Source: Geobacter sulfurreducens PCA (GTDB taxonomy: Bacteria > Desulfobacterota > Desulfuromonadia > Geobacterales > Geobacteraceae). Taken from it: DNA of 32,000 bases. The stretch covers positions 990,001-1,022,000 of the forward strand of contig NC_002939.5 of assembly GCF_000007985.2 (NCBI RefSeq), in the 5' to 3' direction. Below are positions 3,206-29,288 of the stretch, one piece after another. The position numbers and the translations under genes were made by a program. Position 1 is the stretch's first letter. Every line of letters starts with the position of its first letter. Below the pieces are notes generated by a model. The model had not been told where the DNA came from. It ran no database searches and saw only the letters and a list, made by a program, of their open reading frames with translations.

Positions 3206-3976
3206 ATGCCATTGACCTCCATTGAACACACCGTCAAAAGCTTCCTCGCCGAATTCCAGGCGTTCTGCGTCCTGTCGCTCAGGGCCGTGGTGCGCATCTT
3301 CCGCCGCCCCGGCTACTACCGGGAATTCGTCATCCAGTTCGACAAGATGGGCGTCGGCTCCCTCTTCATCATCTGCCTCACGGGACTGTTCACCGGCATG
3401 GTCATGGCGCTCCAGGCCCTGATCCAGCTCAAGCCCTTCGCCGCCACCAGCTACGTGGGGGGGATGGTGGCGGTAACCATGGTAAAGGAGCTGGGGCCGG
3501 TCCTCTCGTCCCTCATGGTCGCGGGCCGGGTCGGCTCGTCCATCACCGCCGAGCTGGGCACCATGGTGGTGACCGAGCAGGTGGACGCCATGCGGGTGGA
3601 GGGGACCGACATCGTCAGCCGGCTGGTCACCTCCCGCCTCAAGGCACTGATGCTGGCCATGCCCATGCTCGCCCTGGTCACCGACGCGGTGGCCCTGCTG
3701 GGCGGGTACATCATTGCGGCGGGGTATGACATCAACCTCCTCATGTACTGGAAGTCACTGCCCCAGTTCATGGTGTTCCAGGACCTCATCGAGGGGGTGA
3801 TGAAACCCTTTGTCTTCGGTACGCTCATCGCGCTCATCGGCTGTTACGTGGGGCTTTCCACCAGCGGCGGCGCCGAGGGGGTGGGGACGTCGGCCAAGCG
3901 GGCAGTGGTTCTCTCATCGGTCATGGTGTTGGTGGCCGATTTTTTCATGACCAAGATATTTATTGTGTTCCGGTGA
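3206..3976 (+). CDS. mlaE: MlaE-family ABC transporter permease (lipid asymmetry / Ttg2B-like)
   Basis: 256-aa multi-TM protein with the conserved core KELGPVLSSLMVAGRVGSSITAELGTMVVTEQVDAM. Starts 6 nt after the lon stop. Confidence 0.9.
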   Translation: MPLTSIEHTVKSFLAEFQAFCVLSLRAVVRIFRRPGYYREFVIQFDKMGVGSLFIICLTGLFTGMVMALQALIQLKPFAATSYVGGMVAVTMVKELGPVLSSLMVAGRVGSSITAELGTMVVTEQVDAMRVEGTDIVSRLVTSRLKALMLAMPMLALVTDAVALLGGYIIAAGYDINLLMYWKSLPQFMVFQDLIEGVMKPFVFGTLIALIGCYVGLSTSGGAEGVGTSAKRAVVLSSVMVLVADFFMTKIFIVFR

Positions 3977-3986
3977 GGGCGACGAC

Positions 3987-4751
3987 GTGAGCGGCGGCGA
4001 ACAGGGCATCAGGATGGACAAGGTTTCCTACTCCGTGGGCGGGCGGACGATCCTCACGGAGTTCGACCTGTTTCTCGCGCCGGGCGTGAACCGCACCATC
4101 CTGGGACGGAGCGGGGCCGGCAAGACCACCATCCTGCGGCTCATGCTGGGACTGATCCGCCCCCAGGCCGGGACCATCTCCATCGACGGCATCCCCATCG
4201 GGAGCCTGAGCGAGAGCGAGCTGATCCGGCTCCGGAAGCAGATCGCCATCGTCTTTCAGGGGGGGGCGCTCTTCGATTCTCTCACGGTGGGAGAAAACGT
4301 GGGCTACCGGCTGCTGGAGGAGGGGCGCCTCGGCGAGGGGGAGATTGAGCGGATCGTGCTTGAGAAGCTCTCCTTCGTGGGGCTCGAGCACTCCATCGAC
4401 CTCTATCCGGCAGAGCTCTCCGGCGGCATGAAAAAGCGGGTGGCCATCGCCCGGGCCCTGGCCGCCGAGCCGCGCTACATCTTTTTCGACGAGCCCACCA
4501 CCGGCCTCGACCCGGTGGGGGTCTACAACATCCAGCACCTGATGCTCCGCCTGCAGGGGGAGGGAAAAACCACCCTGATGGTCACCCATGACCTGGAAAC
4601 CGCTTTCGCCGTGTCCGAGCGATTTTCGTTCCTCCACGAAGCGCGGCTCCTCTTCGAGGGGACCGAGGAGGAGATGCGCCGGTGCGCCGTACCCGATATC
4701 CGCGAGTTCCTGACGCCGTCGGAGGCGTCGCTCTTCAGGAACAGCGACTAG
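3987..4751 (+). CDS. mlaF: MlaF-like ABC transporter ATP-binding protein
   Basis: Walker A GRSGAGKTT, signature LSGGMKKRVAIARAL, Walker B IFFDEPTTGLD, H-loop VTHD. Start chosen at GTG 3987 (GAGGG 7 nt upstream) because the first beta-strand IRMDKVSYSV begins before ATG 4014. TTG 3963 and ATG 4014 are alternatives. Confidence 0.85.
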   Translation: MSGGEQGIRMDKVSYSVGGRTILTEFDLFLAPGVNRTILGRSGAGKTTILRLMLGLIRPQAGTISIDGIPIGSLSESELIRLRKQIAIVFQGGALFDSLTVGENVGYRLLEEGRLGEGEIERIVLEKLSFVGLEHSIDLYPAELSGGMKKRVAIARALAAEPRYIFFDEPTTGLDPVGVYNIQHLMLRLQGEGKTTLMVTHDLETAFAVSERFSFLHEARLLFEGTEEEMRRCAVPDIREFLTPSEASLFRNSD

Positions 4752-16894: not shown

Positions 16895-16911
16895 TGCCCG
16901 ATATTTGGGCA
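16895..16911 (+). promoter_or_regulatory. 17-bp upstream element TGCCCGATATTTGGGCA (NtrC-type enhancer-binding-protein site candidate)
   Basis: Imperfect palindrome with TGC-N11-GCA spacing, centred about 73 bp upstream of the nifV -24 GG. Related copies at 18260 and 21299. Confidence 0.45.
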
Positions 16912-16974
16912 GACCGGAGGGGGCCGTTTCCCCCGGTGCCGCGCCGGACAGCGGTTTTCCCGATTGCTAGAGCC

Positions 16975-16990
16975 TGGCACGGCTCGTGCT
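16975..16990 (+). promoter_or_regulatory. Sigma54 promoter upstream of nifV (TGGCAC-N5-GTGCT)
   Basis: TGGCACGGCTCGTGCT with correct GG/GC spacing. Confidence 0.7.
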
Positions 16991-17036
16991 AATCTAAACG
17001 TACATAACCGACAGATTCAGTCTTGCAGGGCATCGG

Positions 17037-17070
17037 GGCCCCGGAACAGCATTCCGGGGCCTTTTCGTTT
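17037..17070 (+). terminator. Intrinsic terminator inside the nifV 5' leader (attenuator)
   Basis: GGCCCCGGAA (17037-17046) pairs with TTCCGGGGCC (17052-17061) around loop CAGCA, followed by TTTTCGTTT. It lies between the sigma54 promoter and ATG 17090. Confidence 0.75.
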
Positions 17071-17089
17071 GCCGGAAAGGAGCCGGGCC

Positions 17090-18241
17090 ATGGAACATAC
17101 CCTTAAGCACGAAGTCATCATCGACGACACCACTCTGCGTGACGGCGAACAGACCGCCGGGGTCGTCTTCAGCAAGAAAGAGAAGATAGCCATTGCCCGC
17201 ATGCTTGACTCCATCGGGGTCCGGGAGTTGGAGTGCGGCATTCCGGCCATGGGAGAGGACGAACGCGCCGCGGTCCGGGCGCTGGTGGACCTGGGGCTCT
17301 CTGCCCGGCTCATTACCTGGAACCGGGCGCTGGTGGCCGACATCCAGGCGTCCATCGACTGCGGCATTACCGCGGTGGACATCTCCCTGTCGGTTTCCGA
17401 CCAGATGATCGCCCACAAGTTGCGCAAGGACCGCCGTTGGGTAAAGGAGCAGCTCAGGCACTCCCTCGGCTTTGCGAAGGAGAAGGGGCTTTACGTTTCA
17501 GTGGGAGGGGAGGATTCGAGCCGGGCCGACCTCCTCTTCCTGGTGGAGCTCATGGAGGTCGCCCGCGATATGGGAGCCGACCGGTTCCGCTTTTGCGACA
17601 CCCTCGGCATTCTCGACCCCTTCACCATGTACGAAAAGGTGCGCACGCTACGAACGGCCGTGCCGGAACTCGATATCGAAGTGCACACCCACAACGACCT
17701 GGGGATGGCCACCGCCAATGCAATCGCCGGAATCAAGGCCGGTGCCCGTTTTGTGAACACCACCGTAAACGGCCTTGGCGAACGGGCCGGCAACGCGGCT
17801 CTGGAAGAGGTGGTCATGGCGCTCAAGCTCGCCTGCGGGTGTGATCCGGGCATCGACACCCAACGCTTCCATGAGATCTCGCGCTTCGTGGGGCGTGCCT
17901 CCCAGCGGCCGGTCCCTCCCTGGAAAGCGGTGGTGGGCGAGCGGGTCTTTTCTCACGAATCGGGGCTCCACGCGGACGGCGTCATCAAGAACCCCCTCAA
18001 TTACGAGGGATTCGATCCGGCGGAGGTGGGGCTTCGGCGCCACATCGTGGTGGGCAAGCATTCGGGGACGAGCGGTCTCGTGGAGCGGTTCCGGAGCATG
18101 GGGGTGGAACTGGCGCGCGAAGAGGCCGCGGAGCTGATGGATGAGGTGCGCGCCGTGGCCCAGCGGCTCAAGCGCCCCCTCTCCGACGGCGATCTCCGCC
18201 GGCTCTACGCGGCGGGAAAGCATGACCGCCTGGCAGCATGA
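17090..18241 (+). CDS. nifV: Homocitrate synthase (NifV-type, HMGL-like family without LeuA regulatory domain)
   Basis: 383 aa with motifs TLRDGEQ and HTHNDLGMATANAIAG. No C-terminal LeuA dimerisation domain. Sigma54 promoter and nitrogen-gene neighbours. The ORF-track start at 16682 is an artefactual extension. Confidence 0.75.
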   Translation: MEHTLKHEVIIDDTTLRDGEQTAGVVFSKKEKIAIARMLDSIGVRELECGIPAMGEDERAAVRALVDLGLSARLITWNRALVADIQASIDCGITAVDISLSVSDQMIAHKLRKDRRWVKEQLRHSLGFAKEKGLYVSVGGEDSSRADLLFLVELMEVARDMGADRFRFCDTLGILDPFTMYEKVRTLRTAVPELDIEVHTHNDLGMATANAIAGIKAGARFVNTTVNGLGERAGNAALEEVVMALKLACGCDPGIDTQRFHEISRFVGRASQRPVPPWKAVVGERVFSHESGLHADGVIKNPLNYEGFDPAEVGLRRHIVVGKHSGTSGLVERFRSMGVELAREEAAELMDEVRAVAQRLKRPLSDGDLRRLYAAGKHDRLAA

Positions 18242-18259: not shown

Positions 18260-18276
18260 TGCATAAATAATGGGCA
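18260..18276 (+). promoter_or_regulatory. 17-bp upstream element TGCATAAATAATGGGCA
   Basis: Same TGC-N9-TGGGCA pattern as 16895 and 21299. Centred about 116 bp upstream of the -24 GG at 18384. Confidence 0.45.
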
Positions 18277-18280
18277 AACG

Positions 18281-18312
18281 AGGGGGCGGGCGATCGGCGT
18301 GCCCCTTCTTTT
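18281..18312 (+). terminator. Terminator after nifV
   Basis: GGGGC (18283-18287) pairs with GCCCC (18301-18305) around a GC-rich interior, followed by TTCTTTTCT. Confidence 0.55.
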
Positions 18313-18382
18313 CTGGTCGGCAAAATTATCGAAGTAACAATAACATGCCGAAATTACTGTGACGATCCGGTGTGCGCAAGAG

Positions 18383-18398
18383 TGGCACGGCCTATGCT
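18383..18398 (+). promoter_or_regulatory. Sigma54 promoter for the OMP-glnK-amtB operon (TGGCAC-N5-ATGCT)
   Basis: TGGCACGGCCTATGCT with correct spacing. Confidence 0.7.
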
Positions 18399-18417
18399 AA
18401 ACAAATGACAAACAATC

Positions 18418-18472
18418 GGCACAACGCTGTGCCATCCATGCAACGAAATCGGGTAACCAGGCAAAGGCGCCT
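18418..18472 (+). promoter_or_regulatory. Two hexaloop hairpins of ANTAR-target type (antiterminator candidate)
   Basis: Hairpin 1 is GGCAC-AACGCT-GUGCC (18418-18433). Hairpin 2 is AGGC-AAAGGC-GCCU (18459-18472). Both loops are 6 nt with A at position 1 and G at position 4. Hairpin 2 uses nucleotides of the 5' arm of the terminator. Confidence 0.5.
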
Positions 18473-18504
18473 TCCACCACGGGTGGAGGCGCCTTTCTTT
18501 TTTT
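18463..18504 (+). terminator. Intrinsic terminator inside the OMP-glnK-amtB 5' leader
   Basis: GGCGCC(U)UCCACC (18466-18478) pairs with GGUGGAGGCGCC (18482-18493), followed by TTTCTTTTTTT. It lies 85 nt upstream of ATG 18589. Confidence 0.8.
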
Positions 18505-18588
18505 ACATTGTGCGGAAAGGAGGAGAAGCTGAACGTCGTTGGGAGGACATTCGTGAATGCAATTATTACTGACAAAGGAGAAGCATCA

Positions 18589-19341
18589 ATGAAAATGACG
18601 ATGAAGATTCTTTCCCTGACCACAGCACTCGTTACCATGATCACCGGCGTTGCCCTGGCGACCCCCTCCACCCAGGTCTGGATTCCGTCCACCGATGTGC
18701 AGGCCTTCGGCACGGCCCACCTCGGCATCGACAATTACCTGAGGGTCTCCAAGAATCCCGACGGCAGCCGCCAGCCCAACACCTACGACCTGGGCCTGAC
18801 CTTCGGCCTTCTCCCCTTCGAGAAGCTCCAGATGGAAGCGGGCGTAGACTACATGGTGAATGCAACCTCCCCCGGCGACAGCCATCCCTTCTACCTCAAC
18901 GTGAAGCTGGCAACCCCCGAGGGGTCGCTCTTCGGGTACTCGCCCGCCATTGCCGTAGGTGCCTACAACATCGGCTTCAAGGAAGACGTCTCTGACCAGA
19001 ACATCGTGTACGGGCTCGTCGCCAAGACCCTGCCGGTTGTGGGGAGACTGTCGGCGGGCTACTTCGTCGGGAACAGTGCGGTGCTGAACGACGCGAACGG
19101 CGAGAACGACAACCATGGCGTGCTCCTTTCCTGGGACCGTACCATGAGCGAAATCTCCGACAAGCTGTGGGTGGCGGTCGACTACCAGGGGAGCGACAGC
19201 TTCATGGGAGCCCTGAACTTCGGTGTTTCCTGGGCCTTCTCCAAGAACGTATCGCTCCTCGTGGGCTACGACATCTACAACAGCTCGGTAACGGGCGGGA
19301 AGAATACCTTCACCACCCAGCTCGACATCAATTTCCCTTAA
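18589..19341 (+). CDS. Putative outer-membrane beta-barrel protein, first gene of the glnK-amtB operon
   Basis: AAAGGAG RBS and signal peptide MKMTMKILSLTTALVTMITGVALA. Alternating hydrophobic/polar strands rich in Y/G/N/S/D, with an aromatic near the C-terminus (LDINFP). 250 aa. Function unknown. Confidence 0.55.
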   Translation: MKMTMKILSLTTALVTMITGVALATPSTQVWIPSTDVQAFGTAHLGIDNYLRVSKNPDGSRQPNTYDLGLTFGLLPFEKLQMEAGVDYMVNATSPGDSHPFYLNVKLATPEGSLFGYSPAIAVGAYNIGFKEDVSDQNIVYGLVAKTLPVVGRLSAGYFVGNSAVLNDANGENDNHGVLLSWDRTMSEISDKLWVAVDYQGSDSFMGALNFGVSWAFSKNVSLLVGYDIYNSSVTGGKNTFTTQLDINFP

Positions 19342-19768: not shown

Positions 19769-21238
19769 ATGAAGTGGAAACGTTCGATCATCACACTTGC
19801 CCTGGCCGCCGCAGCCTTCATGGCTCCGGCCGCAGTCCTCGCCGAAGAGGCCAAGGCCCCCGCCGTGGCGGCAACCCAGGCAGCCGTCACCTCCGCCCAG
19901 GCTGCTCCGGCGGCCGTTGCCCCGGCTGAGGCCGCACCGGCGGCTGCCGAAGCCCCCAAGGTGGCCGAACCGGTCCTCAATACCGGCAATACCGCCTGGA
20001 TGCTCGTCTGCGCGGCCCTGGTCCTTCTGATGCTTCCCGGCCTTGCCCTCTTTTACGGCGGCATGGTCCGGAGCAAAAACGTCCTCTCAACCCTGATGCA
20101 TTCCTTTGTTGCCATGGGGATCGTGGGGGTCCAGTGGGCCGTCATCGGTTACTCGCTGGCCTTCGGTCCCGACATGGGCGGCATGGGGCTTGTGGGAGAC
20201 TTCAGCCGGGCGCTGCTCAACGGAATGATCAGCTTCAAGGACGGCGCGCCGGTCTACACCCTCTGGCAGAACGTGACCAGTGAACCCAACGCCATCCCCG
20301 AGTACGTCTTTGCCATGTTCCAGGGAATGTTCGCCATGATCACCGTAGCCCTCATCTCCGGCGCCATGGCCGAGCGGGTTAAGTTCTCCGCCTACTGCGT
20401 CTTTGTGCTCCTTTGGACCACCCTGGTCTACGATCCCCTGGCCCACTGGGTCTGGATGGTGGACGGCTGGCTCTTCAAGAAGGGTGCCCTGGACTTTGCC
20501 GGCGGCACCGTTGTTCACCTCTCCTCCGGTATTTCCGCCCTGGCGTTCCTCGTCTTCCTCGGCAAACGTCACGGGTTCCCCCATGAGCGTATGGCTCCCC
20601 ATAACCTCTCCATGACCATGCTCGGCGTGGGGCTCCTCTGGTTCGGCTGGTTCGGGTTCAACGCGGGTTCGGCGGTAGTCGGCGTGAACAACGTTGATGC
20701 GGCCGGCGGGCTTGCGGGCCTCGCCTTCGCCACCACCACCATCGCCCCGGCAGCCGGCGGCCTGGCCTGGATGATCGCCGAATGGATCCACGCGGGCAGG
20801 CCCTCGGCACTCGGCTTCGGTTCAGGCGTGGTCGCAGGACTGGTCGGCATTACGCCCGCGGCCGGCTTTGTCCAGCCGGGCGCTGCCATCATCATCGGCC
20901 TCGGCGCCGGCGTGATCTGCTACCTGGGTGTGCTCATGAAGGCGAAGCTCAAGTATGACGACTCCCTGGATGCCTTCGGCGTGCACGGCGTGGGCGGCAC
21001 CTTTGGCGCCCTCGTCACCGGCGTCTTCGCCACGGTGGGGGCCACGGGGCTCCTCTCCGGCAACGTGTCCCAGTTCATCACCCAGGTGATCGGGGTGGTG
21101 TCGGCCGGTGCCTATGCCTTCATCGTGACCCTGGTCATCGCCTTCATCCTCGACAAGACCATCGGTCTCCGGGTGGAGAAGGAAGACGAGATCATGGGCC
21201 TCGACCAGACCCAGCACTCCGAGTCGGCGTACAACTAG
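19769..21238 (+). CDS. amtB: Ammonium transporter AmtB with signal peptide and Ala/Pro-rich N-terminal linker
   Basis: GGAGG RBS. Amt family motifs FAGGTVVHLSSG and DDSLDAFGVHGVGG, with 11-12 TM segments. Start ATG 19769; the ORF-track start at 19706 overlaps glnK. Confidence 0.95.
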   Translation: MKWKRSIITLALAAAAFMAPAAVLAEEAKAPAVAATQAAVTSAQAAPAAVAPAEAAPAAAEAPKVAEPVLNTGNTAWMLVCAALVLLMLPGLALFYGGMVRSKNVLSTLMHSFVAMGIVGVQWAVIGYSLAFGPDMGGMGLVGDFSRALLNGMISFKDGAPVYTLWQNVTSEPNAIPEYVFAMFQGMFAMITVALISGAMAERVKFSAYCVFVLLWTTLVYDPLAHWVWMVDGWLFKKGALDFAGGTVVHLSSGISALAFLVFLGKRHGFPHERMAPHNLSMTMLGVGLLWFGWFGFNAGSAVVGVNNVDAAGGLAGLAFATTTIAPAAGGLAWMIAEWIHAGRPSALGFGSGVVAGLVGITPAAGFVQPGAAIIIGLGAGVICYLGVLMKAKLKYDDSLDAFGVHGVGGTFGALVTGVFATVGATGLLSGNVSQFITQVIGVVSAGAYAFIVTLVIAFILDKTIGLRVEKEDEIMGLDQTQHSESAYN

Positions 21239-21264
21239 AAACATTTTATCTCACGTTTCTGATG

Positions 21265-21297
21265 AGCCGCCCCTTCCAGGGGGCGGCTTTTCTTTTT
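21265..21297 (+). terminator. Rho-independent terminator after amtB
   Basis: GCCGCCCC (21266-21273) pairs with GGGGCGGC (21280-21287), followed by TTTTCTTTTT. Confidence 0.9.
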
Positions 21298-21298
21298 G

Positions 21299-21315
21299 TG
21301 CTGAAATATTGGGCA
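21299..21315 (+). promoter_or_regulatory. 17-bp upstream element TGCTGAAATATTGGGCA
   Basis: Third copy of the TGC-N9-TGGGCA element, centred about 94 bp upstream of the -24 GG at 21401. Confidence 0.45.
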
Positions 21316-21399: not shown

Positions 21400-21415
21400 T
21401 GGCATGCCTCGTGCC
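21400..21415 (+). promoter_or_regulatory. Sigma54 promoter upstream of the histidine kinase (TGGCAT-N5-GTGCC)
   Basis: TGGCATGCCTCGTGCC with correct GG/GC spacing. Confidence 0.6.
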
Positions 21416-21468
21416 TAACGGATGGTGGGGCTCTCCGCTTCGGCCCCCAACCGGATCCCGGGTGACCC

Positions 21469-23939: not shown

Positions 23940-24095
23940 AGCTGGCGTATTATTCTCTGCAGCCGGTTGGTATATATTTTTACAAAAAATAATCAAAATC
24001 TGATTTACTAATGTCTATCAAATTGGTAAGGTATCTTACGGTTTGAAGGCGTTTCGGGCAGCAACGAGCGTAACCCACAACAGAATACGGCTTAA

Positions 24096-24198
24096 CTTAT
24101 CAAGAGCGACCGAGGGACAGGCCCGGTGACGTCGCGGCAACCTCCCCATGGGGGGAAGGTGCCAATTCCTGCGAGACCGACAGGTTTCGGGAGATAAG
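24096..24198 (+). promoter_or_regulatory. SAM-I (S-box) riboswitch aptamer
   Basis: CUUAUCAAGAGCGACCGAGGGACAGGCCCGGUGACGUCGCGGCAACC...AAGGUGCCAAUUCCUGCGAG...GAGAUAAG matches the S-box consensus. P1 is CUUAUC/GAUAAG. The GGUGA kink-turn, GGCAACC and GUGCCAAUUCC elements are present. Confidence 0.9.
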
Positions 24199-24226
24199 GA
24201 AGAGCGTGACACCTCACGGTGAATCG

Positions 24227-24258
24227 AATCCTCTTCCGCACCCCGGAAGGGGATTTTT
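24227..24258 (+). terminator. Expression-platform terminator of the SAM riboswitch
   Basis: The stem includes CUUCCG (24233-24238) paired with CGGAAG (24244-24249) and is extended by flanking pairs, followed by AUUUUU. It ends 17 nt before ATG 24275. Confidence 0.8.
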
Positions 24259-24274
24259 CATTGTGGAGGAAACC

Positions 24275-25408
24275 ATGAACATCGCGACGCAGGCAGCACA
24301 GATCGGTCTCGACTGGGATACCCGCACCGGGGCGGTGACGGTACCCATCTACCAGACGGCAACCTTCCGGCATCCGGGATTGGGCCAGAGCACGGGCTAC
24401 GATTATTCCCGCTCCGGCAACCCCACCCGCCAGGCCCTGGAAGAGGGGATCGCCCGGCTGGACGGCGGCGCCAGGGGATTTGCCTATGCCTCGGGCATGG
24501 CTGCCATCGCCAATCTCCTCCTGCTCTTCAAGAGCGGCGACCACCTGGTGGTGACCGAGGACCTCTACGGCGGCACCTGCCGTCTCTTCGACCAGATTCT
24601 GGTCCAGTACGGCCTCTCGTTCACCTATGTGGACACGAGCGATCCTGAGGCGGTGCGGGACGCCATCCGTCCCGAGACCAGGGCCCTGTTCGTGGAGTCC
24701 CTCACCAACCCGCTCCTCAAGGTCGCCGATATCGCGGCCCTCTCGACCCTCTGCCGCGAGCGGGGGCTGCTTTGTATCGTGGACAACACCTTCCTCACTC
24801 CCTATCTTCTGCGGCCCCTGGATCTCGGGGCCGACATCACGGTCTACAGCGGCACCAAGTACCTGTCCGGGCACAACGACACGGTGTCGGGGCTGGTCGT
24901 GGTCAAGGAGCCGGCCCTGGCCGAGCGGGTCTACTTCCTCCAGAATTCCGTGGGCGCAGTGCTGGGGCCCCAGGATGCGTGGCTCACCATCCGGGGGATG
25001 AAGACCCTGTCGGTGCGACTGGACCGCCAGCAGGAAAACGCCGGCCGGATCGCCGAATGGCTGGCGCGGCATCCGCGGGTGCCACGGGTCTTCTATCCGG
25101 GGCTGCCGGGCCATCCGGGCCACGAACTGCTGGCGCGCCAGGCCCGGGGCTTCGGCGCCATGATCGCTTTCGAGGTGGATGATAAGGCTCTGGTGGAGCG
25201 TTTGCTCCTCAAGACGGAATTGATATCATTCGCGGAAAGCCTCGGCGGCGTTGAAACCCTGATCACCTTTCCCCAGGTTCAGACCCATGCGGACATCCCG
25301 CCGGAGGTTCGGGAGCGGCTCGGCATCAATGACGTGCTCCTGCGCCTTTCGGTGGGGATCGAGGATGCGGACGACCTTATCGCCGACCTGTCCCGGGCAT
25401 TCGCGTAA
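24275..25408 (+). CDS. Cys/Met-metabolism PLP enzyme (cystathionine gamma-synthase / beta-lyase family)
   Basis: GGAGGA RBS, 377 aa. PLP-lysine context YSGTKYLSGHND and N-terminal PIYQTATF. The exact activity (MetB vs MetC vs MetZ) cannot be told from the sequence by eye. Confidence 0.9.
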   Translation: MNIATQAAQIGLDWDTRTGAVTVPIYQTATFRHPGLGQSTGYDYSRSGNPTRQALEEGIARLDGGARGFAYASGMAAIANLLLLFKSGDHLVVTEDLYGGTCRLFDQILVQYGLSFTYVDTSDPEAVRDAIRPETRALFVESLTNPLLKVADIAALSTLCRERGLLCIVDNTFLTPYLLRPLDLGADITVYSGTKYLSGHNDTVSGLVVVKEPALAERVYFLQNSVGAVLGPQDAWLTIRGMKTLSVRLDRQQENAGRIAEWLARHPRVPRVFYPGLPGHPGHELLARQARGFGAMIAFEVDDKALVERLLLKTELISFAESLGGVETLITFPQVQTHADIPPEVRERLGINDVLLRLSVGIEDADDLIADLSRAFA

Positions 25409-25423
25409 GAAATGGAGGACATC

Positions 25424-26560
25424 ATGAAATTCGGCACCCGCATCATCCATACGGGCCGTGAGATCGATCCGACCACCGGAGCGCTCTCGGTTCCCATTTA
25501 CCAGACGTCCACCTATCGGCAGGAATCGGTGGACCATTTCGGCAAGTACGATTACGCCCGCTCGGACAACCCCACCCGCGAGGCCCTTGAGGAAACCGTG
25601 GCCCAGCTGGAGAACGGGACGCGGGGATTCGCCTTCGCCTCGGGCATGGCCGCCATCTCCTCCACGCTGCTCCTGTTCTCGCCCGGCGATCACCTGGTGG
25701 TCTGCGAGGATGTCTATGGCGGTACCTTCCGGGCGCTGACCCAGCTTTTCAGCCGGCTGGGGGTCGAGTCCACCTTCGTGGACGCCACGGACACGGCCGC
25801 CATTGAGGCGGCCTTCCGCCCGAACACCAAGGGCCTCTATCTGGAGACCCCCTCCAATCCACTCATGAAGATCACCGACCTGGCCGCCGCGGCCCGCCTG
25901 GCCCGGGAGAGGGGGGCCATCACCCTGGTGGACAACACGTTCATGACTCCCTACCTGCAGCGGCCCCTGGACCTGGGCTGCGACGTGGTGCTCCACAGCG
26001 GGACCAAGTTCCTGAACGGCCACAGCGATGTGGTCTGCGGCTTTGCCGTGGTGAGGGACCCGGAGTTGGGGCAGCGGATCAGGTTCATCCAGAATGCCTT
26101 CGGCGCCATCCTGGGCCCCCAGGATTCATGGCTCGTGCTGCGGGGTATCAAGACCCTGCGGGTCCGGATGGAGGAAAGCCAGGCCGGGGCGGTCAAAATT
26201 GCCAACTGGCTGGCTGGGGAAAAACGGGTGAGCCGGGTTTTCTATCCCGGACTCCCCGATCATCCGGGTCACGATATCCATGGCCGGCAGTCGTCGGGCC
26301 CCGGCGCGGTCCTGTCGTTCACCCTGGATACCGTTGAAACCACCCGCCGCCTGCTGGAGGGGATGCGTCTGGCTGCCTTTGCCGTGAGCCTCGGCGGGGT
26401 GGAAAGCATCATCTCCTATCCCGCCAGGATGTCCCACGCGGCCATGCCGCCGGCCGAGCGGGCCGCCCGGGGGATCGGCGATACCCTGGTACGGCTTTCC
26501 GTGGGGCTTGAGGACGCCGACGACCTCCTGGCCGAGATGGACCGCCTGATCAACGGCTGA
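25424..26560 (+). CDS. Second Cys/Met-metabolism PLP enzyme (paralogue of the upstream gene)
   Basis: PLP-lysine context HSGTKFLNGHSD and N-terminal PIYQTSTY. Start placed at ATG 25424 (GGAGG 5 nt upstream); ATG 25412 is an alternative. Confidence 0.9.
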   Translation: MKFGTRIIHTGREIDPTTGALSVPIYQTSTYRQESVDHFGKYDYARSDNPTREALEETVAQLENGTRGFAFASGMAAISSTLLLFSPGDHLVVCEDVYGGTFRALTQLFSRLGVESTFVDATDTAAIEAAFRPNTKGLYLETPSNPLMKITDLAAAARLARERGAITLVDNTFMTPYLQRPLDLGCDVVLHSGTKFLNGHSDVVCGFAVVRDPELGQRIRFIQNAFGAILGPQDSWLVLRGIKTLRVRMEESQAGAVKIANWLAGEKRVSRVFYPGLPDHPGHDIHGRQSSGPGAVLSFTLDTVETTRRLLEGMRLAAFAVSLGGVESIISYPARMSHAAMPPAERAARGIGDTLVRLSVGLEDADDLLAEMDRLING

Positions 26561-26759: not shown

Positions 26760-29288
26760 ATGAAGATTCGGAGCACCCTCACAGCCGGCTGTTTTATCTT
26801 CGCCCTGCTCACGGGGCTGGTCGGCTATTTCGGCGGCAGCGCCATCACCAGGATCAGCGCCGAGTTCGACGCGGTGACGCGGGATGGCTTGCCGGCCATT
26901 AGGACTCTCCACGACATCCGCCATGCGGGAGTGCGCATTGTTGCCTCCACCAGCGAGTTCGGACTGGTGAGCGTGGTCGGTCGCAACGGCGTTGCTGCCC
27001 GCCATCAGGTTGAGGAAGAAAAAGAGCTCCTGGAACAGGGAGCCGGTCTGTACCAGTCCGCGTTTTCCACCCTGAAAGACCTCTCCGACCGTCTTGATCC
27101 CGAAACACGGCAGTATGTGCAGGAAATCGACCGGGCCGGCAGGGATCTCCTGGCGCTGAGCGCAGAGTCCATGGAGACCGTGCGCCGCGTCAGCTCACCC
27201 GCGGCGATTTTGGAGGTAAAGGAGCGCTTCGAGACAGCGGAGAGACACTTCCTCGACGTTGTCGACCGCGCTCTCGCCCTCGAACGGCGGCGGCTCGTCA
27301 CACGTCAGCAGGAAGTCCACGATTCCATTACCCTGGCACTGTTCACCCTCAGCGCGGCATCTGCGGTGGCGCTCCTCTTTGCAATGGGTGGCGGCACCCT
27401 CTCGGCGATACTGATTTCACGTCCCATAGCGCTCCTGCAGGAAGGGGTCGAGCAGGTGGGGCAGGGAATCCTCGACACCCGCATCGATATCAGCGGCAAC
27501 AACGAGATCGGCCGGCTCGCCGGCGCCTTCAACCGCATGACCACGGAACTCCGGGCGGCCAAGGACGAAATCACCACGGCGCGCAACTACCTGGACAACG
27601 TGATCTGCTCCATGGCCGACGCCCTCCTGGTGGTGGATACCAACGGTACGGTCATGAACGTCAACCCGGCCCTCTGCGGGTTGCTCGGCTACCGGGAGAA
27701 CGAGTTGATCGGCCGTTCCTTCTCGTCCATCCTGGCCGACGGGGGGCATGGGCAGAGCATCATTGCCGAGATGGCCGAGCAGGGGCAGGTTCCCGACCGG
27801 GAGCTCCTCTACCGGAGCCGCCAGGGCGAGCTGATCCCGGTGGTCCTGTCCGGCGGCGCCATGCGGAACCAGGACGGCGAGGTGTGCGGCATCGTCTGCA
27901 TCGCTCACGACATGAGGGAACGCAAGAGAAGTGAAGAGGAAATCCGGCGGCTTGCCTACTTCGATCCCCTCACCGGCCTGCCGAACCGGGCACTGTTCCA
28001 GGACCGGGTCAGCCACGCCCTGGCCGTGGCCAGGCGTGAGGAAGGTGCGGTGGCGCTGCTGTTCCTGGACCTGGACCGGTTCAAGGACATCAACGACACT
28101 CTCGGCCATGCCATGGGAGATCTGCTCCTGACGTCGGTGGCCGACCGGCTCAAGGCCCACGTGCGGGTCAGCGACACGTTGGCCAGGCTGGGCGACGACG
28201 AGTTCGTGGTCATCCTGACCGGGGCGCGGGATGAGCGGGGAGTGAGCATCGTGGCCCAGTCGCTTCTGGACCTGCTCACCCCGTCCTTTGACCTGGAAGG
28301 AAAAGAGGTGTTCATCTCCACCAGTATCGGCATTGCCCTGTTCCCGTCCGACGGCGAGGACGGCAATGTGCTCCTTTCCCGGGCCGATATGGCTCTGCAC
28401 GCGGCCAAGGAGGCCGGCCGCAACGTCTATCGCTTCTACAGCGACGACATGAACCGCTCCGCCCAGGACCGGCGGGGGCTTGAGGACCGTCTGCGGCGCG
28501 CCTTGGCCAATGAGGAGTTCTATCTCGATTATCAGCCCCAGATCGATATGCGGACCGGGGGAATCTTCGGCGTTGAGGCGTTGCTGCGCTGGAACCACCC
28601 CGAGGAAGGCCTTATCCCGCCCGGGCGCTTCATTCCCGCGGCCGAAGAGATGGGGTTCATCCGCCGCATCGGCGAGTGGGTCCTGCGGGCAGCCTGTCTC
28701 CAGTGCCGTGCCTGGCAGGAGTCGGGCCTCCCGCCGGTCAGGGTGGCCGTCAACGTGTCGGGGCACCAGTTCAACCAACCGGGGTTCATCGATATGGTCG
28801 ACCGGGTTCTGGAGGAGACAGGGCTTGATCCCACCCTTCTGGAACTGGAGCTGACCGAAAGCACCCTGCTCGAAGGGGCCCGGGACACGATCATGACCCT
28901 CATCGACCTGAAGGTAAGGGGCATTCATCTGGCCATCGACGACTTCGGCACCGGGTATTCGTCCCTCAGCTACCTGAAGCACTTCCCCATCGACCGGCTC
29001 AAGATCGACCGCTCCTTTGTCCGCGATATCGTCTCCGACCTGGACGACCGGGCCATCGTGGAGGCGATCATCGCCATGGCCCACAGCCTGGGGCTGCGGG
29101 TCCTGGCCGAGGGGGTCGAGCGGGAGGAGGAGCTGGAGTTGCTGCGGGAGCGGGGGTGCGACGAGGTTCAGGGGTACTACTTCGGCAGGCCCATGTCGGC
29201 CCGGGACCTGGAGGCGCGCCTGATGGCGGCGTTGCCCGCCCGCGGGACCGCACCCCTGCGGCTGATAGCGAGGGCCGAAGAGGGGTAG
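26760..29288 (+). CDS. Membrane sensor protein: periplasmic helical domain - HAMP - PAS - GGDEF (GDDEF variant) - EAL
   Basis: 842 aa with two TM segments (about 8-28 and 192-218), a HAMP domain and a PAS domain (NYLDNVICSMADALLVVD). GGDEF domain with RVSD I-site and GDDEF at nt 28191-28205. EAL domain with EALLRW (from 28575), DDFGTGYSSL and QGYYF. Confidence 0.9.
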   Translation: MKIRSTLTAGCFIFALLTGLVGYFGGSAITRISAEFDAVTRDGLPAIRTLHDIRHAGVRIVASTSEFGLVSVVGRNGVAARHQVEEEKELLEQGAGLYQSAFSTLKDLSDRLDPETRQYVQEIDRAGRDLLALSAESMETVRRVSSPAAILEVKERFETAERHFLDVVDRALALERRRLVTRQQEVHDSITLALFTLSAASAVALLFAMGGGTLSAILISRPIALLQEGVEQVGQGILDTRIDISGNNEIGRLAGAFNRMTTELRAAKDEITTARNYLDNVICSMADALLVVDTNGTVMNVNPALCGLLGYRENELIGRSFSSILADGGHGQSIIAEMAEQGQVPDRELLYRSRQGELIPVVLSGGAMRNQDGEVCGIVCIAHDMRERKRSEEEIRRLAYFDPLTGLPNRALFQDRVSHALAVARREEGAVALLFLDLDRFKDINDTLGHAMGDLLLTSVADRLKAHVRVSDTLARLGDDEFVVILTGARDERGVSIVAQSLLDLLTPSFDLEGKEVFISTSIGIALFPSDGEDGNVLLSRADMALHAAKEAGRNVYRFYSDDMNRSAQDRRGLEDRLRRALANEEFYLDYQPQIDMRTGGIFGVEALLRWNHPEEGLIPPGRFIPAAEEMGFIRRIGEWVLRAACLQCRAWQESGLPPVRVAVNVSGHQFNQPGFIDMVDRVLEETGLDPTLLELELTESTLLEGARDTIMTLIDLKVRGIHLAIDDFGTGYSSLSYLKHFPIDRLKIDRSFVRDIVSDLDDRAIVEAIIAMAHSLGLRVLAEGVEREEELELLRERGCDEVQGYYFGRPMSARDLEARLMAALPARGTAPLRLIARAEEG

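Follow-up and report, generated by a model that had tools for sequence, protein, structure and literature searches.

The leader of the GSU0938-glnK-amtB operon of Geobacter sulfurreducens as a probable GnfR-controlled transcription attenuator

What decides whether transcription that starts at a sigma54 promoter reaches the ammonium-uptake genes behind it, when an intrinsic terminator stands in between? The question is raised by a 32,000-nucleotide (nt) stretch of Geobacter sulfurreducens PCA (contig NC_002939.5, positions 990,001 to 1,022,000), referred to here as the window, in which GSU0938-glnK-amtB is followed by gnfK (GSU0941) and preceded by a leader with two hairpins and a terminator. 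A first-pass annotation of the DNA had proposed that sigma54 initiation and antitermination by an ANTAR-domain regulator together control this operon of an outer-membrane protein, glnK and amtB. The analysis described here supports that proposal through the published listing of the operon, an exact copy of the regulator's motif and the conservation of both hairpins. The leader is very probably a site of transcription attenuation under the control of GnfR, an ANTAR response regulator.

Anatomy and folding of the leader

The sigma54 (RpoN) promoter at 18383 and the first gene at 18589 both lie where the first-pass annotation had put them. The promoter pattern TGGCAY-N6-TGCW matches twice in the window against 0.24 matches expected. 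Further upstream lies a candidate activator site that may belong to GnfM, as judged from a pattern derived from one half of the gnfK region (−131 to −91) footprinted by Ueki and Lovley. This pattern gives 4 matches against 1.35 expected, including those at 18260, at 21299 before gnfK and at 16895 before nifV.

Downstream of the promoter, a base-by-base check confirms the hairpins GGCAC[AACGCU]GUGCC and AGGC[AAAGGC]GCCU, here called P1 and P2, as originally described. P1 is composed of GGCAC (18418-22), the loop AACGCU (18423-28) and GUGCC (18429-33), while P2 is composed of AGGC (18459-62), the loop AAAGGC (18463-68) and GCCU (18469-72). P2 falls within the published GnfR site CAGGCAAAGGCGCC (18458-18471), and the same positions hold the sole exact match to the GnfR motif CAGGCAANGGCGCC in the window. 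The terminator is built from a 5' arm at 18463-78 in which U18473 is bulged, a loop at 18479-81 and a 3' arm at 18482-96. The terminator and U-tract that had been reported are thus present, but the stem consists of 15 pairs with one bulge and a folding energy of −26.0 kcal/mol, not of 12 bp. Its 5' arm includes the loop and the 3' arm of P2, and because nucleotides 18463-72 belong to both structures, P2 and the terminator cannot coexist, exactly as had been claimed.

The folding energies are in keeping with this arrangement. The RNA from 18400 to 18510 has a minimum free energy of −38.8 kcal/mol (z = −4.26), and none of 200 shuffled sequences was as stable. P1 and P2 fold at −8.6 and −5.0 kcal/mol, respectively, and are thus much less stable than the terminator, and an RNA truncated at 18481, before the terminator 3' arm, has both P1 and P2 in its minimum-energy fold. 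Taken together, the energies and the fold of the truncated RNA make termination the default, so that read-through needs something that holds P2. If transcription starts near 18409, as the −12 element suggests, the terminated leader is predicted to be ~95 nt long, which is shorter than the ~110 nt first suggested. By chance, 32 kb searched on both strands should hold 0.05 copies of two A-x-x-G hexaloop hairpins with a U-tract behind them; the window holds two, of which this leader is one. The other one, on the minus strand near 27118, was judged to be a chance match, having weak stems rich in G-U pairs and lying antisense inside a GGDEF/EAL gene.

The identity of the locus is clear. It differs from CP074693.1 by 3 mismatches in 6753 nt, and the leader is present exactly in public G. 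sulfurreducens assemblies. The gnfK product is identical to AAR34268.1, other members of whose protein cluster are named GnfK, and AAR34265.1 (the GSU0938 product) and AAR34268.1 lie three genes apart.

Table 1. Positions of the leader elements, the genes of the operon and related features in the window
Feature	Position	Strand	Basis or description
GnfM-type upstream activator site, candidate, TGCATAAATAATGGGCA	18260..18276	+	pattern match
sigma54 (RpoN) −24/−12 promoter, TGGCAC-GGCCT-ATGCT	18383..18398	+	pattern match
P1 hairpin, GGCAC[AACGCU]GUGCC	18418..18433	+	5 bp, hexaloop with A1/G4
P1-P2 linker, 25 nt	18434..18458	+	sequence
P2 antiterminator hairpin, AGGC[AAAGGC]GCCU	18459..18472	+	4 bp, hexaloop with A1/G4
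Intrinsic terminator	18463..18504	+	15-bp stem with one bulge, 3-nt loop, C + U7
GSU0938, outer-membrane channel, 250 aa	18589..19341	+	identical to AAR34265.1 ("Outer membrane channel")
glnK, P-II protein, 112 aa	19393..19731	+	Pfam P-II, E = 1.4e-33
amtB, ammonium transporter, 489 aa (public-assembly gene call)	19769..21238	+	Pfam Ammonium_transp, E = 1.3e-128
Operon-end intrinsic terminator 3' of amtB	21264-21289	+	11-bp stem, 8 G-C pairs, T-run
gnfK sigma54-type promoter, TGGCAT-GCCTC-GTGCC	21401..21416	+	sequence; activator-site candidate at 21299-21315
gnfK (GSU0941), sensor-less histidine kinase, 248 aa	21469..22215	+	HisKA and HATPase_c only
nifV activator-site candidate, TGCCCAAATATCGGGCA	16895-16911	+	pattern match
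nifV sigma54 promoter, TGGCACGGCTCGTGCT	16975-16990	+	pattern match
nifV hexaloop hairpin, GGGC[AUCGGG]GCCC, A1/G4	17028-17041	+	overlaps terminator 5' arm
nifV-leader terminator, 10-12 bp, then UUUUCGUUU (U-tract)	17035-17063	+	sequence

Published GnfR targets and related leaders

A comparison of this leader with the published GnfK/GnfR regulon shows how closely the two agree. The nitrogen-fixation genes of G. sulfurreducens have RpoN promoters activated by GnfL/GnfM, and leader terminators were described for nifH, nifEN-nifX, the Gsul_0938 operon (hypothetical protein, glnK, amtB) and Gsul_2799 (Ueki & Lovley 2010, PMC2995071). These leaders have in common the site CAGGCAANGGCGCC, which lies 5' of the terminator and overlaps it. 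The nifH terminator was functional in lacZ fusions, the nifH transcript ended prematurely in ΔgnfK and ΔgnfR strains, and GnfR bound the CAGGCAANGGCGCC site of the nifH leader only with GnfK present (PMC2995071). The antitermination of nitrogen genes by GnfK/GnfR, which the first-pass annotation had cited, is therefore a published result. GnfK is GSU0941 and GnfR is GSU2822, an ANTAR protein encoded outside the window (PMC2995071).

The organism and the operon are the same in that work (Figure 10A, Gsul_0938 homologue operon), as are the RpoN promoter, the terminator, the exact CAGGCAANGGCGCC site on the terminator 5' arm and the presence of gnfK in the window. The upstream activator site at 18260-76 is the candidate counterpart of the GnfM site, and GSU0938-0940 is the operon concerned. 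The differences are that the paper gives one conserved site, equivalent to P2, and leaves the upstream P1 undescribed, and that its lacZ, primer-extension and RNA-binding experiments used the nifH leader.

The second point of comparison is the general ANTAR substrate, in which two hexaloop hairpins carry A1 and G4 and the second of them competes with a terminator (Ramesh et al. 2012, PMC3369931). The definition in the first-pass annotation agrees with the one given there, and Table S2 of that paper contains a G. sulfurreducens dual-hairpin match before "hypothetical protein; P-II; ammonium transporter". The present leader shares with the RNAs of EutV, NasR and AmiR two tandem stem-loops of at least 3 bp (5 bp in P1 and 4 bp in P2), hexaloops with A1 and G4 in both (AACGCU and AAAGGC) and a P2 whose nucleotides 18463-72 serve in the terminator 5' arm. 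It differs in its linker of 25 nt, compared with 5-12 nt in the eut leaders of E. faecalis. This length is beyond the EutV range and typical of the leaders of nirB type described below, and the search model of the family sets no fixed linker length. Since the operon is listed in PMC2995071 and the dual-hairpin match in PMC3369931, the leader is not new: the element is already known, and mechanism and leader are both in the literature.

These sources suggest the following mechanism. On nitrogen limitation, the NtrC-like activator GnfM would turn on the sigma54 promoter at 18383. By default the nascent leader of ~95 nt would fold into the terminator, and transcription would stop at 18497-18504, before the first gene. 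GnfK would phosphorylate GnfR, and phosphorylated GnfR would bind the A-x-x-G hexaloops of P1 and P2 as they emerge. With P2 held, nucleotides 18463-18472 would be sequestered and the terminator 5' arm left unpaired, allowing for read-through into the channel gene, glnK and amtB. By analogy, the role established for GnfR at nifH is probably the one it plays here, and P1 probably contributes to binding.

The first-pass annotation had named absence from related genomes as an outcome that would speak against it, and conservation proved to be extensive. Upstream regions were taken from 80 metagenomic loci encoding relatives of the channel protein and from four genomic loci. The P2 motif was found with at most two substitutions in 37 of 85 upstream regions, and in 35 distinct leaders both hairpins are present with a terminator and U-tract behind them; most of those listed also have a sigma54 element TGGCA(C/T)-N5-(C/T)TGCT upstream of P1. 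In these orthologues P1 takes the form GCAC[AAYGNN]GUGC with a near-invariant GCAC/GUGC core. Its loop has A1 in 34 of 35 leaders and G4 in all of them, while positions 2, 3, 5 and 6 vary; the P2 loop has A1, A2 and G4 in every one. The exceptions are few: the two closest relatives have 7-nt P1 loops (AAUGAUA and AAGGGCU; L128 2308-2409 and L129 2324-2425), and L156 (2325-2402) and L157 have G for A at the first loop position of P1. Most orthologues have linkers of ~10-30 nt, and those of L128 and L129 measure 41-42 nt.

The check for covariation that had been recommended gave a divided answer. In the terminator, 4 of 9 consensus pairs have changed in a compensatory way, and because one of these changes, from G-C to A-U, involves position 5 of the P2 loop, the loop nucleotides must pair in the terminator. 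For P1 and P2 the test is uninformative across the 35 orthologues, as core pairs never vary; only the outer P1 pairs do (G-C, U-A or C-G), and these are often unpaired. A possible pairing of P2 loop position 3 with the terminator 3' arm, found in 95% of motif-selected terminators, is dominated by A-U and inconsistent in the orthologues, and was given no weight. Several other arrangements occur at these loci. Some orthologous channel genes directly follow another gene, L131, L178 and L194 have a decayed P2, and in many Geomonas-like loci the channel gene behind the attenuator is not followed by glnK or amtB.

With covariation uninformative, the weight falls on the conservation of A1 and G4 and on the differing P1 stems of a wider set of leaders. 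A scan for CAGGCAANGGCGCC-N4-30-GGCGCCNTT in one genome per species returned at least 120 matching DNA stretches, and the statements that follow hold among the matches listed. The motif lies 5' of nirB in Pseudomonas, Stutzerimonas and Bordetella, of nifH and a radical-SAM (S-adenosylmethionine) gene in Geobacterales, of amtB in Clostridia-type genomes and of eutA in Neobacillus. Of the 75 terminator-type matches, 59% have, no more than 70 nt upstream, a hairpin of 4 bp or more with an A-x-x-G hexaloop, as against 5% of shuffled sequences, 9% of random windows and 11% of matches without a terminator. The P1 stems are different from one another (GAUC/GAUC, AGGC/GCCU, GCAC/GUGC and others) and share the loop consensus AAYGNN. 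Linkers of the nirB-type leaders of Pseudomonadota are mostly 18-30 nt long, so that one of 25 nt is normal for the class.

Two groups of these matches deserve separate mention. In Neobacillus, L050 and L069 have the identical CAGGCAACGGCGCC motif and a terminator 5' of an open reading frame (ORF) read as eutA from its N-terminal sequence, so that distant phyla and different gene contexts have the 14-nt P2 sequence in common. In gut Clostridia-type loci (L007 ~4382-4423 and L046 ~4554-4595, both on the minus strand), the 14-nt P2/terminator motif lies 5' of amtB-glnK, and a sigma70-like TTGACA-17-TATACT promoter ends a few bases upstream of it, hence the single hairpin.

In Pseudomonas putida, NalA is the leader of nirBD, and NasT binding as well as nirBD expression depends on both of its hexaloops and on their A1 and G4 (PMC10783516). 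The Pseudomonas nirB leaders retrieved here and the present one share a P1 with the loop AAYGNN, a linker mostly of 18-30 nt and an identical P2/terminator core CAGGCAAAGGCGCC...GGCGCCUUU. The two systems differ in regulator (nitrate frees NasT from NasS, whereas GnfK phosphorylates GnfR), in signal (nitrate/nitrite there, nitrogen limitation here), in target genes and in the P1 stem (GAUC/GAUC there, GCAC/GUGC here). A covariance model built from nirB-type leaders was rejected because these leaders had been retrieved with the P2 motif of the window itself, which makes the P2 score circular.

Comparison with Rfam gives no more than a resemblance to two families. A SAM riboswitch at 24094 is all that the window yields at gathering thresholds, and nothing matches at the leader. 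Below threshold, the leader resembles RF00625 (P11), at 26.7 bits (E = 3.9e-4) against a gathering score of 70, and RF03032 (narK RNA), at 20.6 bits against 43.2. Both show, in the aligned consensus, a sigma54-like element together with a CAACG loop and a ACAAAGGCG hairpin. These matches are independent of the P2 motif, and by their aligned consensus P11 and narK RNA resemble the NalA leader. Because the scores lie below the gathering thresholds, the leader is not filed as a member of either family.

Objections and alternative explanations

Several points weigh against control of this leader by GnfR. The published data on termination, read-through and binding concern the nifH leader (PMC2995071), and the ANTAR protein itself is encoded outside the window and is known only from that paper; a Pfam scan of the 20 main ORFs of the window found no ANTAR domain. 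Induction of eutP by EutV is abolished with a linker of 3 or 14 nt, compared with 25 nt here, an objection that is offset by the 18-30-nt linkers of nirB-type leaders. The radical-SAM leaders L011 and L087 share the P2 motif and have no room for P1, so P1 may be non-essential for GnfR. In addition, as the core stems do not vary, pairing in P1 and P2 is supported by conservation, not by covariation. Finally, about half of the orthologous channel genes have a sigma54 promoter and no attenuator; L133, L134, L146, L147, L158, L162 and others have the promoter with no leader hairpins or terminator.

One alternative is a purely constitutive role for the hairpin at 18463-18504, as terminator or insulator of the upstream gene nifV, with P1 and P2 incidental. 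The element does lie in the nifV-GSU0938 intergenic region, and a simple scan picks it out as an intrinsic terminator. Yet a sigma54 promoter stands between nifV and the hairpins, and nifV has a separate terminator-like hairpin after its stop codon, at 18288-18304. In orthologues, promoter, P1, P2 and terminator follow one another in this order immediately 5' of the channel gene, regardless of the upstream neighbour, and A1 and G4 hardly change in either loop, in contrast to the remaining loop positions. With the exact published GnfR site added to these, a role confined to nifV is the least credible of the explanations weighed here. Slightly less remote, though still highly improbable, is the idea that the terminated leader of ~95 nt is a trans-acting small RNA (sRNA), besides or instead of an attenuator in cis. 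ANTAR systems include a regulator-sequestering sRNA (EutX/Rli55), terminated leaders could accumulate, and the best Rfam resemblance is to P11, a family annotated as an sRNA gene. On the other side, P2 is buried in the terminator once transcription has ended, so that only P1 would be presented; the P11 match is far below the gathering score; and no target complementarity or other evidence for such an sRNA was found.

An attenuator that is read by some other effector, whether another ANTAR protein, a metabolite acting on a riboswitch or the translation of a leader peptide, is somewhat easier to entertain and nonetheless very improbable. It draws on the fact that the GnfR experiments concerned nifH and on an ORF of 66 aa with a GTG start (18372-18572) that spans the leader. 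This ORF is the only one to do so, and because it starts 5' of the promoter −12 element it is untranslatable from the leader transcript, for which reason leader-peptide attenuation was rejected. As for a metabolite, no riboswitch family matches the leader in Rfam, where only P11 and narK RNA come up, both sub-threshold. Another ANTAR protein would have to read a 14-nt site of the same form as the nifH site bound by phosphorylated GnfR, in a regulon that is defined by the CAGGCAANGGCGCC motif. Control by GnfR thus accounts for the leader far better than any of these. To the published account the present comparison adds small refinements: P1 and its A1/G4 positions are conserved, linkers of ~18-30 nt are normal for proteobacterial leaders, and the attenuator is present before about half of the orthologous channel genes.

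Neighbouring genes and other candidate attenuators

GSU0938 begins with an ATG at 18589 behind the ribosome-binding site AAAGGAG. A Pfam scan assigned it no family. The AlphaFold model, with a predicted local distance difference test score (pLDDT) of 79.8, shows a signal peptide and a 12-stranded β-barrel. In structure it comes closest to generic outer-membrane proteins, namely 12-stranded barrels and porins (COG4313 channel, FapF, porins), at a template modeling (TM) score of ~0.5. There are 2683 homologues at E ≤ 1e-10. For gnfK, the RpoN promoter and the GnfM footprint were established experimentally (PMC2995071). In the G. sulfurreducens genome CP010430.1 (locus L001, 6442-6753), a DDE transposase gene follows amtB in the place that gnfK occupies in the window and in the other assemblies. 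Elsewhere in the window, the SAM riboswitch (RF00162, 91.4 bits, 24094-24200 on the plus strand) lies directly 5' of two genes for pyridoxal phosphate-dependent enzymes of Cys/Met metabolism (24206-25408 and 25412-26560).

A second attenuator of ANTAR type seems to be present in the nifV leader (16895-17092), at 17028-17070. Its hexaloop hairpin departs from the published CAGGCAANGGCGCC site, making it a non-consensus P2, and no P1 is evident in this leader. In the relatives L128, L129 and L185 the canonical GGC[AAUGGC]GCC occupies the place of this hairpin. Other leaders are similarly without a standard P1. In Trichlorobacter/Geobacter metagenome-assembled genomes the sigma54 promoter of the radical-SAM gene ends ~15 nt before P2 (L011 ~3808-3849 on the minus strand and L087 ~5083 on the plus strand). 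Among nifH leaders, L010, L081 and L118 have no A-x-x-G P1, and L095 and L113 have the hexaloop GYCGCA instead.

These sites and the gene order invite a joint proposal, which we regard as doubtful. GlnK or the GlnK-AmtB complex might be the missing signal input of GnfK, closing a feedback loop, and GnfR may act on single-hairpin sites. GlnK is a candidate because gnfK adjoins the glnK-amtB genes that GnfR would antiterminate, and because the order channel-glnK-amtB-gnfK recurs in L045, L128, L129, L163, L170, L171, L182, L185, L196 and L197, plus L133 and L135. Action on single hairpins is suggested by the radical-SAM leaders devoid of P1 and by the nifV leader. If this were true, a single regulon would treat the dual-hairpin rule as optional.

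The leader itself adds no new biology; its value is that of a positive control, in which the correct switch was recovered from raw sequence. For Geobacter it speaks of a control published in 2010, in which ammonium uptake and P-II signalling are governed in two layers, with initiation through sigma54 and GnfM and antitermination through GnfK and GnfR.

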